DNA of 64,000 bases. Origin: an uncultured bacterium (GTDB lineage: Bacteria; Babelota; Babeliae; Babelales; Vermiphilaceae). The translations under genes and the position numbers were made by a program. Shown here one piece after another: positions 15,056 through 41,669 of this stretch (position 1 is the first letter of the stretch; the number at the start of each line of letters is the position of its first letter). Location: contig OY970172.1 of assembly GCA_963707655.1 (NCBI GenBank), positions 576,001 through 640,000 on the forward strand, read 5' to 3'. Under the pieces are notes generated by a model. It worked only from the letters and a program-made list of their open reading frames with translations, searched no databases and was not told where the DNA came from.

Positions 15056-16189
15056 TTATAGCGCGTGCCATAAACCGGCCATTGTTTGCGATATTTTCTG
15101 CTCTAGTTGAAGGTCAAAAAGTAAGGTGTGTAATTCTGCCATAGTCAAAGAGGTTACTGCCAATAGTTCATCGAGCGAACAGGGCTTGCTGCAGCTTTGC
15201 AGAATAAGGTCAGCAATGCTCGCCGGCTTAAACTCAACTTTTGCCTGCACGTGGGACTGCCCATCCTCCTGTGCTGATACGGTAGTCTTTTTTGCCTCAT
15301 GCGCAGCTATTGGCATTGTTTCGCCAAAAGCATTCAATATGTCCTGAGCAGAAGCAACCAGGGTAGCCCCTTGTGCAATTAGGCTGTGACAGCCGGCACT
15401 CAATTCATCATCAATCGCTCCAGGCACGGCAAACACTTCTCTCCCCTGCTCAAGCGCATAGCGCGCGGTAATTAATGCACCACTTTTTTGCGCTGCCTGC
15501 ACCACCACACTGCCCCGGCTCAGGCCAGAAATAATGCGATTGCGTGCCGGAAAATTGCCCGGCGATGGCTCCATTGCCAAAGGAAATGAGCTTATAACCG
15601 CTCCGCCGCGCTCTACGATCTGCTCAAACAACCTTCTATTGCCGGTCGGATACGGGCGCAACAGGCCGGAGCCCAAAACTGCGATAGTTTTCCCACCGGA
15701 TTCAATGGCAGCCTGGTGGGTATAGGTATCAATTCCCTGTGCTCCGCCGCTCACAAGGGCAAAGCCTGCTTGCGCGAGAGGTGGTACTAATCGGTTTACT
15801 ACACGCTTGCCATATAGCGACGCAGCACGCGAACCCACAAAGGCTATTGCCGTATCATTGTTCAAAGCGCCCTGAACATATAAAATTGGCGGTGGTAAAT
15901 GAATTTCTTTGAGCAATGCCGGGTAGTTACCATCTGCGATAGCAATTAATGCAATGCGGTGCTTTTCCAACAGCTTGAGTTCTGCTTCAAGCGTAGTTCT
16001 ATCTTGTAATCCTTGCACCACTTTTTGTGCGGCATTCAGCGTTATGCCACAGGCATGCGCAATATCAGAAGGTAATAATGCATAGAGCTGCTCAAACGCC
16101 TCTTGATTATGCATAAGCGATTCTATTAAAGCCGGCCCTACGCCACTGATTAAGGAAAGATGAAGAATGGTGCGATTAGTATGGTTCAT
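15056..16189 (-). CDS. dprA: DNA processing protein DprA
   Basis: VGSR, VSGGAQGID, FPARNRIISGLS, SGALITA, GREVFAVPG. Confidence 0.96.
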   Translation of the reverse strand: MNHTNRTILHLSLISGVGPALIESLMHNQEAFEQLYALLPSDIAHACGITLNAAQKVVQGLQDRTTLEAELKLLEKHRIALIAIADGNYPALLKEIHLPPPILYVQGALNNDTAIAFVGSRAASLYGKRVVNRLVPPLAQAGFALVSGGAQGIDTYTHQAAIESGGKTIAVLGSGLLRPYPTGNRRLFEQIVERGGAVISSFPLAMEPSPGNFPARNRIISGLSRGSVVVQAAQKSGALITARYALEQGREVFAVPGAIDDELSAGCHSLIAQGATLVASAQDILNAFGETMPIAAHEAKKTTVSAQEDGQSHVQAKVEFKPASIADLILQSCSKPCSLDELLAVTSLTMAELHTLLFDLQLEQKISQTMAGLWHAL

Positions 16190-16223
16190 GTACGTTATCT
16201 ATACCTATAAAATCTATATCTAT

Positions 16224-16253
16224 AAAAAAAATGCCGCGCATTCTCTGCGCGGC
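16224..16253 (-). terminator. Rho-independent terminator
   Basis: gccgcgca-ttctc-tgcgcggc with U8 tail on the minus strand. Confidence 0.75.
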
Positions 16254-16326
16254 TTCACTCTGTTTCTACTAATTTACTTTAAAAATCTCTATTTCTCTAG
16301 GTTCTGTGAACAAAATTTTATATGAG

Positions 16327-16896
16327 TTAATTATTCTCTTGTTGTTCTTCTAGAAATGCAGATAGATCCCATTCCTGCCGAGTAATATTATAGCGTGCTA
16401 CTGCTTTATTTCCATCAAAGCCAAACTTACCATTAAAATTACTTGTTGCTGAGCCATAATTGGCAAGGAATATCATTTTTGCTGTCGCTAAAAAAAGAGC
16501 ATAAAGATCCCTGGACTCAACACCATTATCTCGTTCAATCAATAATATCTTTTTCTGCTTGCTGAAGGCCAAAATGTGCACTTCCTTGGGGAACGTGACT
16601 TCGTTTAAATTATTAGAATAAACCCAAGATATCGTAGAATAATAATGAGCACCGCCATGCCGATCCATACGCGAAAAATATAGCCCACGCGGTTTTATGG
16701 AATGATGGATACCTTCATCATAGCTAGTTGGCATTTCCTCGCCGCTATGAATTACTAGATTTTTTAAATCATTTTCCAGATCTGAAAAGGGACTTCGCCA
16801 TTTTATAACGGGTGTAACTGACTATGCTTGATTATCCATTGCCTGCATGCTACACAGCAAAAACAATACAACAATGCCATATATTTTGTAACTCAT
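16327..16896 (-). pseudogene. Secreted hypothetical protein interrupted by an in-frame TAG at 16822-16824
   Basis: MSYKIYGIVVLFLLCSMQAMDNQA*SVTPVIKW...EEMPTSYDE continues in the same frame as ORF 16327..16734. Confidence 0.65.
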
Positions 16897-17068
16897 ACGC
16901 ATTCTCATTTTTTGGTAATGAATTAATTATTTTCCAATCAATTTTATACAACGATGACACAAATGATCAACTATCGACGAAATCATGCAACTACTTTTTG
17001 CTCATTATCTCATTCGAATAAGCGAAAGATGGAGAAGAGTATTATTTTTGTGTTGCATAACGCCTATT

Positions 17069-17102
17069 AAAAAAGAAAAGCCACGCATTTCTGCGCGGCT
17101 TT
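17069..17102 (-). terminator. Rho-independent terminator, near copy of 16224..16253
   Basis: aaagccacgca-tttc-tgcgcggcttt with U-rich tail on the minus strand. Confidence 0.7.
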
Positions 17103-17167
17103 ATTAAGTATCTACTTATATCTGTTACATAATCATCGCGATGCTTCTGCGGTATTACAAGATATCT

Positions 17168-17635
17168 CTATTCCTCTATTGCTATTATCACGTGCGCATA
17201 CTGCTCCGGCGATATATTAAATACGTGACGAGCTTTCTCATAATTAAATCCCACAAAGCTACCCTCTTCGGGGACGGGGTAAATAAAGTCGGATCCGTGA
17301 ATTATGCGAATCTTGCCTCCACCATTGAGAGTCTGCATTTCCAAATCATCCCATGGAAAGCAATCCTGCTTGGAATAGGTTGCAACAGTTAAAATTAATG
17401 TTTGTGCATTTTTTACCAAATCTCTGCTGTAAGTTAATAAGCTAAAAAGCGTATTCCACGTCTCCGTCCCTTTTTCGCCATAAATCAAGTAAAAGGAATC
17501 TCGCTTTTCAAACTGATAGGCACGAGCAACAATATCATAACTGACGTCTTTAAGACAATGCGCATATACCAGAGTTCCGGTTAGTGCCAATGCAAGGATA
17601 ATCAATAATAGATTTTTTTTGATTCTAGAAATCAT
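17168..17635 (-). CDS. Hypothetical exported protein
   Basis: N-terminal signal/anchor LLLIILALALTGTLVYA; directly downstream of the nitroreductase. Confidence 0.65.
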   Translation of the reverse strand: MISRIKKNLLLIILALALTGTLVYAHCLKDVSYDIVARAYQFEKRDSFYLIYGEKGTETWNTLFSLLTYSRDLVKNAQTLILTVATYSKQDCFPWDDLEMQTLNGGGKIRIIHGSDFIYPVPEEGSFVGFNYEKARHVFNISPEQYAHVIIAIEE

Positions 17636-17637
17636 AG

Positions 17638-18312
17638 TTATATTTGCTCAAACTTACCTTCAAAAGCAAAATCTTCTATCGGTTTACGGTCTGATGGTTT
17701 TGCATCACGGCCGCGCACCGCTTCAGGTGCATTCTCTATGCTGCCCGGTTTGCCAATGGCTACCATTGCTTCAACGGTATACCCTTGCGGAATTGCAAAG
17801 GTAGCGCGCGCTTTATCGTAATCAAAGCCGCCCATGCCATGAGCAACCAGACCATCAATTGTTGCTTGCAATGCCATGTTTTGCCATGCAGCACCAGTGT
17901 CAAATGAATGAGTTCTTGAAAATTCATTGTTATGAGCAAAATGATTGCGGGAAACAATCAGCACTAAAGCGCCTGCATTTTTTACCCAGCTCTTGTTAAA
18001 ATCAACGAGCGTATCAAATAATAAATCCCATGCCGCTGTACCTTTAATGCCATAGATAAAAAACCATGGCTGATCATTAAATGATGAAGGAGCCCAGCGA
18101 GCCGCCTCAAATAAACGATTCAATGCTTCTTTTTCGACTACATCACCAGACAATGCGTATGATGAAACACGATTAAGAAAGAGAGGATCAATAGCATGCG
18201 CCGCTTTGCGGTCTACTTTTAAAGAAGTCACGGTCACCTTTTCATCAGAAATAATTGAGCGAACAGACAAACCAATACCAATTCCCAAAATAAACACTAC
18301 TATTTTATTCAT
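17638..18312 (-). CDS. Nitroreductase family protein with N-terminal hydrophobic segment
   Basis: AARWAPSSFNDQPW, FDTGAAWQNMALQA, HGMGGFD. Confidence 0.92.
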   Translation of the reverse strand: MNKIVVFILGIGIGLSVRSIISDEKVTVTSLKVDRKAAHAIDPLFLNRVSSYALSGDVVEKEALNRLFEAARWAPSSFNDQPWFFIYGIKGTAAWDLLFDTLVDFNKSWVKNAGALVLIVSRNHFAHNNEFSRTHSFDTGAAWQNMALQATIDGLVAHGMGGFDYDKARATFAIPQGYTVEAMVAIGKPGSIENAPEAVRGRDAKPSDRKPIEDFAFEGKFEQI

Positions 18313-37480: not shown

Positions 37481-37804
37481 ATGACGCTTCTCTCTATCTG
37501 CTTATCAGTTATTAGCGGTATCGGAGCGAGCCTAGTTTATAGACTCTTCTTCTTGTTACAGAGAAGAAGAGTCTTTTTCTTGGCAATGCGACAACAAGAC
37601 AATCAAACTTCATTGTCCGACATGAAACGAAACCTATTACTTTCGTTTTTTTTCGCACTCATCCGAATCATATTTCTTGCAATGGTCTTTAGATATCTAT
37701 TGCTATCATCACCAAACCATTTTATAATCGTAGCATTATCTTTTTTTATAACATGGTTAATCCTTATTGTGTTGCATAAGGAAAAATTTGATGCAAGAGA
37801 CTAA
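37481..37804 (+). CDS. Small membrane protein, AtpI/AtpR-like
   Basis: Three to four TMs with LIRIIFL; immediately upstream of atpB. Confidence 0.55.
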   Translation: MTLLSICLSVISGIGASLVYRLFFLLQRRRVFFLAMRQQDNQTSLSDMKRNLLLSFFFALIRIIFLAMVFRYLLLSSPNHFIIVALSFFITWLILIVLHKEKFDARD

Positions 37805-38534
37805 TTTTTTACAAACTCATACGTGGCAGCCCTTTGCGCGATTTACCACACATCCTTTTTTTACCGTTAATCGCGAGACGATTATAAGTACGTGGATTGT
37901 GCTCGCCCTTCTTTTAGTTATTGGTGCTCTGATATGGTTCGTACTGAGAAGACCAAATGGCATAGCCCGCTATCTTATTTTTTCAGGTGCGCAAGCATTC
38001 ATCGATCTCACCACACAAACATTGGGATCGCTTCAAGCTCATCATTTTTACTTTTGCACCGCTCTTTTTTTATTTATCGCTTTATGTAATTGCATTACCT
38101 TATTGCCCTGGACAGAAGAGCCAACGGCCGATATAAACACGACACTGGCCATGGGGCTTATCTCATTCTTTTATGTTCAATGGTATGCAATCCGAGCGCA
38201 CGGCATAGGTGCCTATTTAAAAGAATATGTCTCCCCCGTGTTTGTTATGTTGCCGCTCCACGTTATCGGTAAGCTTTCTTCAATCATTTCATTGTCATTT
38301 CGTCTGTTCGGTAATATTTTTGGCGGTTCGGTAATTGCGCGCATTTATCTTTCGTTTATTAAGGGCTCATTAATTCTAGAGCCATTGGGAATGCCACTGA
38401 ATATTGCTATCACGCTCTTTTTTGTGCTCTTTGAAGGATTATTACAAGCGTTTGTTTTTTCTATGCTCTCACTCACCTATCTTTCAATTGCAGTATCGCA
38501 TGAAGAAACAACACAAATCGGAGACCTTCCATGA
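37791..38534 (+). CDS. atpB: F0F1 ATP synthase subunit a
   Basis: PTADINTT, SLSFRLFGNIFGG (essential Arg), LQAFVFSMLSLTY. Confidence 0.96.
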   Translation: MQETNFLQTHTWQPFARFTTHPFFTVNRETIISTWIVLALLLVIGALIWFVLRRPNGIARYLIFSGAQAFIDLTTQTLGSLQAHHFYFCTALFLFIALCNCITLLPWTEEPTADINTTLAMGLISFFYVQWYAIRAHGIGAYLKEYVSPVFVMLPLHVIGKLSSIISLSFRLFGNIFGGSVIARIYLSFIKGSLILEPLGMPLNIAITLFFVLFEGLLQAFVFSMLSLTYLSIAVSHEETTQIGDLP

Positions 38535-39481
38535 TAGAATGGGCAGAATTTTTGCATTACGGCACCATTGCTCTTTTGGTCTGCATAAGTGCTATTGGCG
38601 TTGGTCTTGGCCAGGGCCTTATCGGCATTGAAGCGCTCAGGGCCATGCATATACAACCGCAAGCATCACTTGATATGATTCGCCTTTGTGTATTGGGTAT
38701 GGCACTTCTTGAATTTGCCGCTATTTCAGGCTTTACTCTTGCGCTGTTTATTTTATTTACCAATCCCAACATAACTTTATATGGAAGCATTGCTGAATTG
38801 GGTGTTGCTGCTGCTCTGGCAATAACCGGTCTAGCCATTGGGTTTGCCTCATATTTTCCCGCAAGCAGCGCATGCAAAGCACTCGCGCGCCAACCATTTT
38901 TTGGCCAACAAATTGTGCGCTTTATGCTTCTCAGCCAATCAACTATTCAAACTCCTCTTGTTTTCAGTTTTATTATTGCCATGTTTATCAAAACACAAAT
39001 TGCTACCGTAACAACGTTGCCCGATGCACTTCGCGTGCTTGCCAGTGGGCTATGCATAGGTGTCGGCAGCATTGGCCCTGCACTGGGCATTGCTCATTTT
39101 GCAAAGATCGCCTGTGAAAGCATTGGCATTAATCGCGCTGCCTATCCAAAGCTACTCTCTTTTACCTTCATCAGTCAGGCAATTATAGAAACACCGGTCC
39201 TTTTTGCCCTACTTATCTCTTTAATACTTTTGGGCACAACGGTGAATGACAATCTTCTTGCAAGCATCGGGCTGTTCAGCGCTGCCATGTGCGCCGCGGT
39301 AGGAACCTTTGGCCCCGGATTCAGCTCGGGAAGAATCGCCGGAGCCGCCTGTAAACAAATTGCAATAGCGCCGGAAAATCATTCTTACCTTGCTCGCATA
39401 AGTATGTTTGGCCAAGGAATGGTTGATACCGGATCAATCTATGCTTTTTTAATCGCAATTTTGTTATATTTCTTTAGGTAA
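38531..39481 (+). CDS. atpE: ATP synthase subunit c with four fused hairpins (8 TM)
   Basis: Four ~79-aa repeats with Gly-rich inner helix, loops IQP/RQP/INR/IAP and E61/Q140/E220/D299; ATGA overlap with atpB. Confidence 0.92.
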   Translation: MIEWAEFLHYGTIALLVCISAIGVGLGQGLIGIEALRAMHIQPQASLDMIRLCVLGMALLEFAAISGFTLALFILFTNPNITLYGSIAELGVAAALAITGLAIGFASYFPASSACKALARQPFFGQQIVRFMLLSQSTIQTPLVFSFIIAMFIKTQIATVTTLPDALRVLASGLCIGVGSIGPALGIAHFAKIACESIGINRAAYPKLLSFTFISQAIIETPVLFALLISLILLGTTVNDNLLASIGLFSAAMCAAVGTFGPGFSSGRIAGAACKQIAIAPENHSYLARISMFGQGMVDTGSIYAFLIAILLYFFR

Positions 39482-39512: not shown

Positions 39513-41669
39513 ATGCATAGCCAAGCACACGTAAGCAAAGAGCATCAGTCTCTTATCAAAAAAATAATCATGATTTTTGGTATCGTTGGATTTTGTTTTT
39601 TTCTTTTTTTTACCACTAATTTTTTTAGGGTAAGACAACAGATCAGTAATGACGCGTATGCGCGCGCGGAACAGAAAAACAAAGCAATAGCTGATTATAT
39701 CTCAAAAAACATTGCGCAACTCAATCCATTGGTCCTTTCGCTCAAGCAACAAATAGAGCGCGATGGAGCCAATCAATCGGCTATTATTGAATATTTACAA
39801 AAAAAACCGGTAGAAGTAAGCGGCTTGGGAGTTATTGTTAATTCACCGTGGTACGCCCCTTATTACGGCGAACATGAAGACAAGCAGGTTTTACAGAATC
39901 TGCCGCAATCAATAATGCATACCGATTGGTATAAGCAGGCAATGGCTGAAAAGAAAGAAATTTCAGGACTTTTTTTTGATGAAGAAACTAACCAGCCAAT
40001 TTTTTATACCATAGCTCCGTTTTACCTCAAGGCAAACCCGCAACAGCCAGCCGGCATTGTTTTTGCCACTCAATCAATGGCACATATACGCCACATTCTC
40101 TCTACGCTTTATACTGATAACACCGGTTACTGTTTTTTACTTGACCAACAAGGTGCTATTCTTGCTCATCCGGAAAACTTTTGGGTACGTACCAAACAAA
40201 CTATCATAGAGCTGGCAAACAAAGTAAACAATCAAAAATTGATCAGCAAAGCAGAATCAGCGCGAAGCAGCGGCTCTTCTTTTATGCATTATCACAATGA
40301 AATGACTGGCGACCGCTCATGGCTTTTTTTCACCAAAATTCCTGCAACCAATTGGCTTCTTGCCAGCGTTGTTGACATGCGCGAGCTACCATTGAGCGGA
40401 GATTTTTTACGCCATAATCTTCTGTTGATTACCATCAGCTTTATTGTGATGCTGCTGTGCGCTCTTTTATTGCTTCCCCCGCTATATAAACATCCCCATC
40501 ACATCCTGCTTTGGATCATCAGCGGAGCGGTCAGCATGCTCTTTGTCTTGGGCATTGCCAGTGCGTGGATTCTTTCTATTCAATTTCCCCGCACTGAAAA
40601 AGATGCTCTTGCTATTGAGAACAAAGCGCAATTATACAAGCTCTTGGATACATTTGAAGAGGCGTACAAAGGAAAACTTGATGAAAAAAATATCGCACCT
40701 GAAAGTAATGATTATGCACAATTGTTGGCATACCGCTATAAAGACAAAAATTATGTACCAACCGGCATTATCATTAATGATATGCAATTTAACCCGCACG
40801 ATCAGATAGAATTTGTTGGCTTTATTTGGCAACGCTATTTTGATGGCATTCATGATTCTGTTGATCGTGGTTTTATTTTGCCTCAGGCAACGCACAAAAC
40901 AACTATTACTGAAATTGGCCGCACCAAACATGAAAAAGCCGAGACAATCATGTGGCAAGTGCAGGCGCAGTTAAATCAAAACTTGAGCTATAGCGCTTTC
41001 CCTTTTGATATAAAAAATATAAAAATTCAGATGCGCCACAAAGATTTTGAAAAAAATATTATTTTAGTACCGGATTTAGATGCGTATAAAATTATAAACC
41101 CTGCCGCACTGCCCGCCATTGGTCAGGATACTCATCTTGACGGTTGGCATCTTTTAAAGAGCTACTTTGATTATGAAATAGAAACCTATTTAACCAACTT
41201 TGGCCTCTACGGCTATGGTCCTTTTGGTATTTATGATGAAGCGCCGCTTTCCCAGGTTCCTGAATTGCGGCTCAATGTAGTGGCTCAGCGCTATTTATTG
41301 GATACAATCTTAACCGACCTTCTCGCCTTATGCGTGATTGCCGTTATTTTATTTGTTTTACTTCTTACCTATTTCTCTGAAAAGAAATTTGAATTTATTC
41401 TAGAAACATGCGCCGCCGCGTTTTTTAGCTCCGTATTTGCGCAAATTCAATTTAGAGCCAAGATTTTTTCACACGAATTTGTTTATTTTGAAATCTTCTA
41501 TTTTACGCTGTATCTCGCCATTATTTTGATTTTGATTACTACGTTGATTCATATGTTTAAAATGAACGTCCCTTTGATCCGCTACGATAGCAACATTATA
41601 ACCAAATTACTGTATTGGCCATTCATTCTGGGAGTTATCTGGAGTGTGACCATGGTGTATTTGTATTGA
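39513..41669 (+). CDS. Cache-domain-fused pentameric ligand-gated ion channel homologue
   Basis: TM, Cache-like periplasmic region (DWYKQA, GYCFLLDQQGAILAHP, TNWLLA), two TMs, ECD with YSAFPFD, then four C-terminal TMs after AQR. Confidence 0.8.
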   Translation: MHSQAHVSKEHQSLIKKIIMIFGIVGFCFFLFFTTNFFRVRQQISNDAYARAEQKNKAIADYISKNIAQLNPLVLSLKQQIERDGANQSAIIEYLQKKPVEVSGLGVIVNSPWYAPYYGEHEDKQVLQNLPQSIMHTDWYKQAMAEKKEISGLFFDEETNQPIFYTIAPFYLKANPQQPAGIVFATQSMAHIRHILSTLYTDNTGYCFLLDQQGAILAHPENFWVRTKQTIIELANKVNNQKLISKAESARSSGSSFMHYHNEMTGDRSWLFFTKIPATNWLLASVVDMRELPLSGDFLRHNLLLITISFIVMLLCALLLLPPLYKHPHHILLWIISGAVSMLFVLGIASAWILSIQFPRTEKDALAIENKAQLYKLLDTFEEAYKGKLDEKNIAPESNDYAQLLAYRYKDKNYVPTGIIINDMQFNPHDQIEFVGFIWQRYFDGIHDSVDRGFILPQATHKTTITEIGRTKHEKAETIMWQVQAQLNQNLSYSAFPFDIKNIKIQMRHKDFEKNIILVPDLDAYKIINPAALPAIGQDTHLDGWHLLKSYFDYEIETYLTNFGLYGYGPFGIYDEAPLSQVPELRLNVVAQRYLLDTILTDLLALCVIAVILFVLLLTYFSEKKFEFILETCAAAFFSSVFAQIQFRAKIFSHEFVYFEIFYFTLYLAIILILITTLIHMFKMNVPLIRYDSNIITKLLYWPFILGVIWSVTMVYLY

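Follow-up and report, generated by a model that had tools for sequence, protein, structure and literature searches.

A four-hairpin F-type ATP synthase subunit c is kept beside a single-hairpin subunit c across the Dependentiae

The ion cost of each ATP in an ATP synthase is set by the number of ion sites on its c-ring. Fusion is known to have changed that number in V/A-type enzymes and, among F-type enzymes, in one two-hairpin case from acetogens. Here we describe a four-hairpin F-type subunit c, which we call c4, from an uncultured bacterium of the Vermiphilaceae. Its gene lies in a window of 64,000 nucleotides (GenBank assembly GCA_963707655.1, contig OY970172.1, positions 576,001 to 640,000, forward strand). 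The window is the whole stretch of DNA that was analysed, and positions refer to it unless they carry the prefix G000:C1, which denotes the genome of the window, a single contig of 1,091,075 bases. Elsewhere in this genome lies a second gene, c1, for an ordinary single-hairpin subunit c. The c4 gene is divided into its hairpins as follows:

38531..39481, plus strand: c4, four-hairpin F-type subunit c, 316 amino acids, with four ATP-synt_C stretches
38531..38767, plus strand: hairpin 1, residues 1-79; Q28, loop I-Q-P43, carboxylate E61 (codon 38711-38713)
38768..39004, plus strand: hairpin 2, residues 80-158; loop R120-Q121-P122, Q140 in place of the carboxylate (codon 38948-38950), then T141-P142
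39005..39241, plus strand: hairpin 3, residues 159-237; loop N-R202, carboxylate E220 (codon 39188-39190), then T221-P222
39242..39481, plus strand: hairpin 4, residues 238-316 and the stop codon; loop A-P281, carboxylate D299 (codon 39425-39427), T300, Y304

The open reading frame (ORF) runs uninterrupted through all 316 residues, with no internal stop, and Pfam ATP-synt_C (PF00137) matches the protein in four separate stretches (whole-protein E 3.1e-23, 82 bits, cut-off 24). This bears out a sequence-only reading, made earlier from the letters of this DNA, that a single 316-residue ORF holds four c hairpins; in the genome as a whole, PF00137 has five matches, every one above the cut-off. The residues singled out by that reading are also in place (Q28, P43, E61, R120-Q121-P122, Q140, R202, E220, P281 and D299), and every site lies 18 residues past its loop position (P43, P122, R202 or P281). 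E61, Q140, E220 and D299, spaced 79, 80 and 79 residues apart, share an alignment column with E64 of single-hairpin c. A carboxylate in the middle of the C-terminal helix is present in hairpins 1, 3 and 4 and absent from hairpin 2, which is also, as had been noticed, the only repeat with an RQP loop; the corresponding loop of c1 is G-K-Y-P. The Na+-type ligands that had been described as scattered across the repeats (Q28, T141, T221, T300 and Y304) are all there. Hairpins 3 and 4 have L/I and S at the position of the c1 glutamine, so that the helix-1 glutamine is absent, and their sites face a phenylalanine, not a tyrosine.

Because the repeats share just 17-27% identity with one another (pieces cut at 79-residue steps and aligned with c1) and no DNA tandem repeat was found inside the gene, the fusion is old and not an assembly artefact. 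An AlphaFold2 model built on an alignment of 121 homologues (mean predicted local distance difference test score (pLDDT) 98.0; predicted template-modelling score 0.93) contains eight membrane-length helices, several with a one-residue DSSP break. These helices make up four c-type hairpins that form a regular arc. The hairpins have not diverged equally: in hhalign comparisons with single-hairpin c, hairpin 2 is the most diverged (50.6, against 86-108 for the other three), and among the c4 hairpins themselves the pair 3 and 4 is closest (111.8), with hairpin 2 as the outlier. An origin of c4 by a two-plus-two duplication left no clear sign in these comparisons between hairpins.

Curated NCBIfam models of F0 subunit c, which are made for single hairpins, give c4 mixed scores: the best specific model, PRK13468, gives 110.4 bits, below its cut-off of 116, and the general model TIGR01260 gives 47.1, above its cut-off of 43.95. 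Two other identities were considered and rejected. V-type subunit K scores far below its cut-offs (PRK14893, 38.2 bits, cut-off 188; PRK06558, 18.8 bits, cut-off 127), and the neighbouring genes are F-type. The N-ATPase models likewise fall short, both for c (TIGR03322, 87.6 bits against 130.85) and for a (TIGR03306, 107.3 against 302.1), and b', b and delta follow the ordinary F-type pattern.

The second c gene, c1, is an ordinary single-hairpin atpE of 85 amino acids that lies 63 kb from c4 (G000:C1:678195-678452, minus strand). It heads an operon in the order c1, b' (119 amino acids), b (163), delta (181) and alpha (505), and b' follows c1 in 29 of 30 c1 loci, the remaining locus ending about 100 bases past c1. 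It has Q31, E64 and Y69, of which Q31 and E64 correspond to the Na+ motif Q....E(T/S), as a motif match. Both the c4 and c1 genes were read in every one of 72 genomes, and this signature is well kept among them: Q31 in 66, E64 in 71, S or T at the following position in 67 and Y69 in 64. A plausible Shine-Dalgarno sequence precedes each of the two c genes. Scans around the c4 locus gave 7 promoter-like sites, where 10.2 were expected from shuffled sequence, and 5 terminator-like sites, where 4.5 were expected.

The remaining subunits a, alpha, beta, gamma, a short epsilon, b', b and delta are each encoded by one gene in this genome, in contrast to the two genes for c. A multi-hairpin and a single-hairpin c thus coexist in one genome with one F1Fo set, in genes that are not adjacent. 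The F1Fo genes of this genome are split over four loci: the window (a and c4); a locus at about 675-678 kb with c1, b', b, delta and alpha, the last at about 676 kb; a locus at about 854-856 kb with beta at about 855 kb and epsilon directly after it; and gamma alone at about 107 kb. Epsilon (G000:C1, about 855560-855810, plus strand) is only about 81 amino acids long; its match to the N-terminal beta-sandwich is weak (25 bits, cut-off 27), and it leaves no room for a C-terminal helical domain.

Both genes are close to universal in the phylum. Searching for c4 gave a match in 254 of 261 Dependentiae genomes (E<=1e-15), including all 189 of high quality; the seven genomes that lack one are all 53-78% complete. 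The c1 profile matched 255 of the 261 and, again, 189 of the 189. All 41 relatives also had a match to c4, and the source names that accompany homologues read Candidatus Dependentiae or Babeliales. When 1.84 billion representative proteins were searched, 400 were hit at E<=0.001, 149 of them at E<=1e-30; among the 150 matches listed most are 300-330 amino acids long. In a tree of 103 single hairpins over 80 columns, hairpins 1, 2 and 3 each form one Dependentiae clade (Shimodaira-Hasegawa-like approximate likelihood ratio test (SH-aLRT) 95-97), so the fusion predates the sampled diversity of the phylum; hairpins 3 and 4 group together in the same tree (SH-aLRT 91).

These results change the picture that had been drawn from the window. 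The sequence-only reading had made its inference conditional on c4 being the only c gene, which it is not, and had named a separate single-hairpin atpE forming the main ring as a finding that would speak against it; a separate single-hairpin gene does exist, and it is found in 189 of 189 high-quality genomes. The suggestion that the ring is restricted to multiples of four hairpins ('12 hairpins with 9 sites') finds no support now that there is a second c gene: because the single-hairpin atpE is equally universal, nothing requires the hairpin number of the ring to be divisible by four. Given a single set of the other subunits, and two c types that are both retained throughout with their carboxylates, c4 and c1 must both serve the same F1Fo.

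How constant the sites of c4 are depends on the site. Among 119 close homologues, E occupies site 3 throughout and site 1 in 116, the other 3 having D there; Q fills site 2 in 115, with E in the remaining 4; and at site 4, 74 have D, 40 E, 4 G and 1 S. The RQP loop of hairpin 2 is conserved in 118. In a wider set of 126 full-length representatives, extending to identities of about 30%, EQED occurs 67 times, EQEE 21 times and EEEE 16 times, with rarer others. The E/Q/E/D pattern, which had been proposed for a survey of relatives, is indeed the commonest in the 72 genomes (47); it is not invariant, and the others are EQEE (11), EMED (5), EEEE (4), EQGE (2) and one each of EEEQ, EGQE and DQED. 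At least one of the four carboxylates is therefore missing in 68 genomes and all four are kept in 4. In the same genomes, position 28 varies (Q in 37, E in 13, G in 11, plus others) and Y304 is conserved in 70. The constant trait of c4 is thus the fusion; the dead second hairpin is common, not universal.

Upstream of c4 lie two genes, both on the same strand:

37767..38534, plus strand: atpB, F-type Fo subunit a (Pfam ATP-synt_A, E 1.7e-35, 123 bits)
37481..37804, plus strand: orf107, a small membrane protein of 107 amino acids, possibly AtpI-like (a c-ring assembly factor), with weak profile evidence

The atpB gene is the sole PF00119 match of the 1.09-Mb genome, and its product contains the essential arginine of subunit a (R179, in the motif SFRLFGN). 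Its stop codon overlaps the start of c4 (ATGA), and its true start may be a methionine 8 codons downstream of the TTG. The arrangement recurs: in all 12 loci compared, the gene immediately before c4 is that for a, and the two overlap in 8. A blastp match of orf107 sits between a folC-like gene and atpB in 8 of 11 c4 loci of relatives. By itself, the window's orf107 matches no Pfam family at E<=0.01. Among it and eight orthologues (n=9), four give a weak ATP-synt_I match (E 0.0045-0.066, 14-18 bits, cut-off 25.1) and one a weak AtpR hit, on which basis orf107 is possibly AtpI-like. Directly downstream of c4 (39513-41669, plus strand) there is no atpF; the gene there encodes a 718-residue membrane protein in which an N-terminal dCache_1 domain (E 8.7e-14) is combined with a hydrophobic-looking C-terminal half; no output domain was recognised. 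In two relatives (L015 and L020), a homologue of this protein occupies the same position.

The closest known counterpart of this pair of c genes is the F/V-hybrid Na+ rotor of Acetobacterium woodii and Clostridium aceticum, in which a multi-hairpin c likewise goes with an F-type a and stands beside a normal single-hairpin c. The best solved sequence match of the c4 family profile is the protein named c1 in A. woodii (4bem_J, E 1.5e-25, over hairpins 3-4), and the same chain comes first in a Foldseek search with the c4 model (template-modelling (TM) score 0.74 on the target). V-type proteolipids come next (TM 0.75-0.83 on the target, over about 155 residues); solved chains cover at most about 170 of the 316 residues of c4. 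PDB entry 4BEM holds nine chains of c2 and one of A. woodii c1, in agreement with the available text of PMC9171764, which describes the ring as nine one-hairpin c subunits and one V-type c. A figure legend in PMC7911925 gives the Na+ motif as 'Q....ET' and that of the dead hairpin of A. woodii c1 as 'Q....QT'. The Q-T of that dead hairpin equals Q140-T141 of c4, so both proteins have one hairpin with Gln-Thr in place of Glu-Thr.

The two systems also differ. A. woodii c1 has two hairpins and one active site, whereas c4 has four hairpins and three active sites; the dead hairpin is the second and last of A. woodii c1 but the second of four in c4; and the A. woodii c genes are adjacent in one operon, whereas those of the Dependentiae are in two loci, 63 kb apart. 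Co-assembly is proven in A. woodii, between its two-hairpin c1 and the single-hairpin c2/c3; for c4 and c1 of the Dependentiae we infer it, as we do its stoichiometry, the direction in which the enzyme works and the coupling ion.

Fused hairpins with fewer sites than hairpins are also a feature of V/A-type proteolipids (Enterococcus hirae NtpK, eukaryotic c and archaeal c), although the context of c4 is F-type (a, b, b' and delta), with no V/A-type subunits. The archaeal c subunits listed in a passage of PMC9171764 have 1, 2, 3 or 13 hairpins, and no four-hairpin form is among them.

Engineered fusions of two, three, four and ten c subunits of Escherichia coli and Bacillus PS3 show that linked F-type hairpins can work in a ring. 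Those are laboratory constructs with identical repeats, whereas c4 is natural and ancient (17-27% identity) and its repeats are differentiated. In literature on the ATP synthase of Dependentiae and Babeliales, on hybrid rotors and on eight-helix c, with the key hybrid-rotor literature covered in part, we found no description of a four-hairpin F-type c.

A second natural relative of this arrangement comes from outside the phylum. A five-hairpin c (P0217), of which we know no earlier description, was found in a metagenome-assembled genome (MAG) of Thermodesulfobacteriota and, through its relatives, in Desulfobacterales-type MAGs; it matched none of the 261 Dependentiae genomes at E<=1e-60. The hosts of the inspected loci (L058-L065) are Thermodesulfobacteriota, Desulfobacterales-type and one 'Bacteriovoracaceae' MAG. 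The protein is about 404 amino acids long and has a single carboxylate (E/Q/Q/Q/Q in L058 and L065), and in each of the 8 loci a single-hairpin c bearing an E...ESTxxY motif comes directly after it. In locus L058 the pair is placed as follows:

L058:5995-7221, plus strand: five-hairpin c
L058:7246-7497, plus strand: single-hairpin c

The operon of L058 runs AtpZ, an ORF without a Pfam hit, a, the five-hairpin c (c5), c, b', b, delta, alpha, gamma, beta and epsilon. As in the c4 family, a multi-hairpin F-type c thus comes after a and beside a single-hairpin c; the difference is that c5 has five hairpins, one carboxylate and an unbroken operon, whereas c4 has four hairpins, three carboxylates and split loci. 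Judged by gene order, the two Dependentiae loci, a-c4 and c1-b'-b-delta-alpha, look like such an operon cut between its c genes. Profile comparisons match the parts by position: the last c5 hairpin scores best against hairpin 4 of c4 (65-78 bits), the internal dead hairpins of c5 (RQP loop, Q-T-P) give 54-63 bits against hairpin 2 of c4, compared with 23-47 for other hairpins, and the single-hairpin partner of c5 scores best against the Dependentiae c1 (88-93 bits). In c5, four dead sites in a row would have to pass subunit a.

Multi-hairpin c proteins other than c4, the five-hairpin ones with E/Q/Q/Q/Q included, appeared among the weaker hits of the search of representative proteins. P0253 (320 amino acids) and P0254 (328 amino acids) are four-hairpin c proteins with the patterns E/S/S/Q and E/E/E/Q, and their repeats are much less diverged than those of c4 (Pfam 167 and 206 bits). 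P0268 (968 amino acids, 12 cluster members, from metagenomes) has 12 ATP-synt_C stretches and so 12 hairpins, with the carboxylate motif L(V/I)E(S/V) throughout the printed sequence, and is unusually tryptophan-rich.

We reasoned that c4 and c1 co-assemble in a mixed c-ring of one F1Fo that works as an ATP-driven pump, and we put the probability of this reading at roughly 0.6. It appears the most economical account because a precedent exists in A. woodii and because a, c5 and c stand together in unbroken operons. On this account, c4 would be a second, four-hairpin paralogue of Fo subunit c within the organism's single F1Fo ATPase. Each copy would supply four adjacent hairpins, three of them with a carboxylate (E61, E220 and D299) and one ion-dead (Q140), and would thereby lower the number of ions per turn of the ring by one. 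The primary role of c4 may nevertheless be structural, such as starting the assembly of the ring or setting its size beside subunit a, and not re-gearing, because the fusion is universal and the dead site is not.

Co-variation between the two genes offers a weak clue that c1 may be linked with the outer hairpins of c4. Only G013 of the 72 genomes carries D at the c1 site, and it carries D at site 1 of c4 too; both genomes that lack Y304 of c4 (G013 and G118) also lack Y69 of c1. G013 (L019 and L056) has G31, D64 and F69 in c1 and, in c4, D at site 1 and F for Y304; in G118 (L144 and L145), the tyrosine positions are occupied by L in c1 and by N in c4. The structure of the E. hirae K-ring is said to imply a neighbour rule that would predict such a link between c1 and the outer hairpins in a mixed ring.

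Several points weigh against a mixed ring. The co-variation comes from two lineages only, six of the 72 genomes keep Y304 without the c1 tyrosine, and separate rings that face the same a subunit would give the same co-variation. Further, none of the Dependentiae genomes inspected has c4 and c1 side by side, and c4, with three of its four sites intact, could form a ring alone (8, 12 or 16 hairpins). The hairpin tree gave no resolved fused ancestor for c4 and the five-hairpin c, nor a placement relative to single-hairpin c. Finally, the Na+ signature of c1 is a motif match, and the c4 sites are heterogeneous.

Two homomeric rotors, a c1 ring and a c4 ring, might instead alternate on one and the same F1Fo according to life stage (outside the host or replicating within it), giving the cell two gear ratios or two ion preferences. 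The c genes are in separate transcription units and so could be regulated separately, their site chemistry differs (uniform Q/E/S-T/Y in c1, mixed in c4), and their co-variation fits alternating rings as well as it fits a mixed one. We know of no precedent, however, for the swapping of whole c-rings. The five-hairpin relatives have both c genes adjacent in one operon, and the known F-type operon with two c types, that of A. woodii, encodes a mixed ring (PMC9171764). We consider alternating rotors unlikely.

Quite unlikely, in our judgement, is a ring made of c4 only, the model of the sequence-only reading, in which two to four copies would give 8, 12 or 16 hairpins with three quarters of the sites active, leaving c1 as a minor or spare subunit. 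Such a ring would fit the position of c4 directly after the only a gene, whose stop codon it overlaps, and the strong conservation of three of its four carboxylates; fused c trimers and tetramers engineered in Fillingame's work are, moreover, reportedly functional in E. coli. Yet c1 is equally universal (all 189 high-quality genomes), has E64 conserved in 71 of 72 genomes and heads an operon of stator and alpha genes, and a spare gene would hardly persist in this way in genomes of about 1 Mb. That c4 is no rotor part at all, and acts as a membrane partner of a that does not rotate, as a scaffold for assembly or as an ion channel in its own right, we regard as very improbable: it is co-transcribed with a and a possible AtpI-like protein, and its hairpin 2 has strongly diverged from normal c, but its carboxylates are kept phylum-wide at the exact rotor position, its model is a regular arc of c-type hairpins (pLDDT 98) and its best structural matches are all rotor ring subunits.

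Within the mixed ring of c4 and c1, a more specific possibility is that the ring is deliberately asymmetric, with one c4 that nucleates assembly, fixes the size, docks the central stalk and mixes site chemistries; we would give this only a small chance. In such a ring, the overlap of the a and c4 genes would keep production of c4 matched to that of the single a subunit. The docking place of the stalk would be unique, since RQP is found only on the ion-dead hairpin 2 (G-K-Y-P in c1). Sites of the Na+ type, with Q, E, T and Y, would be those of c1 and hairpin 1, whereas hairpins 3 and 4 would contribute sites with neither Q nor Y.

In many bacteria, the C-terminal part of epsilon restrains ATP hydrolysis. 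The gene content of this genome agrees with the view, already put forward from the window, of an energy parasite: it encodes three TLC-type ATP/ADP translocases (G000:C1:302678-304024, minus strand; 15308-16291, plus; 16798-18129, plus) and a membrane pyrophosphatase (G000:C1:949841-951760, minus strand), and searches for PF00361, PF00115 and PF02508 (complex I antiporter subunits, haem-copper oxidase and Rnf/Nqr) gave no match. Because ATP/ADP translocases are present, no respiratory chain was found and epsilon lacks the part that restrains hydrolysis, the enzyme likely runs mainly as an ATP-driven ion pump. Consistent with this, the available text of PMC4776705 states that TM6 bacteria have no electron transport chain and that their ATP synthase may sustain a gradient. 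The coupling ion is perhaps Na+, as the Q...E(S/T)...Y signature of c1 suggests.

A whole bacterial phylum that keeps a four-hairpin F-type c beside a normal c widens the known range of F-type rotor designs, and so does the five-hairpin form with a single active site in MAGs related to sulfate reducers. Should the ring prove to be deliberately asymmetric, the four- and five-hairpin c proteins of Dependentiae and Thermodesulfobacteriota would constitute an unrecognised class of F-type ring-organising subunits. Both forms provide natural test cases for how a rotor tolerates inactive sites, how ring size is fixed and how a pump is tuned in parasites that import ATP.

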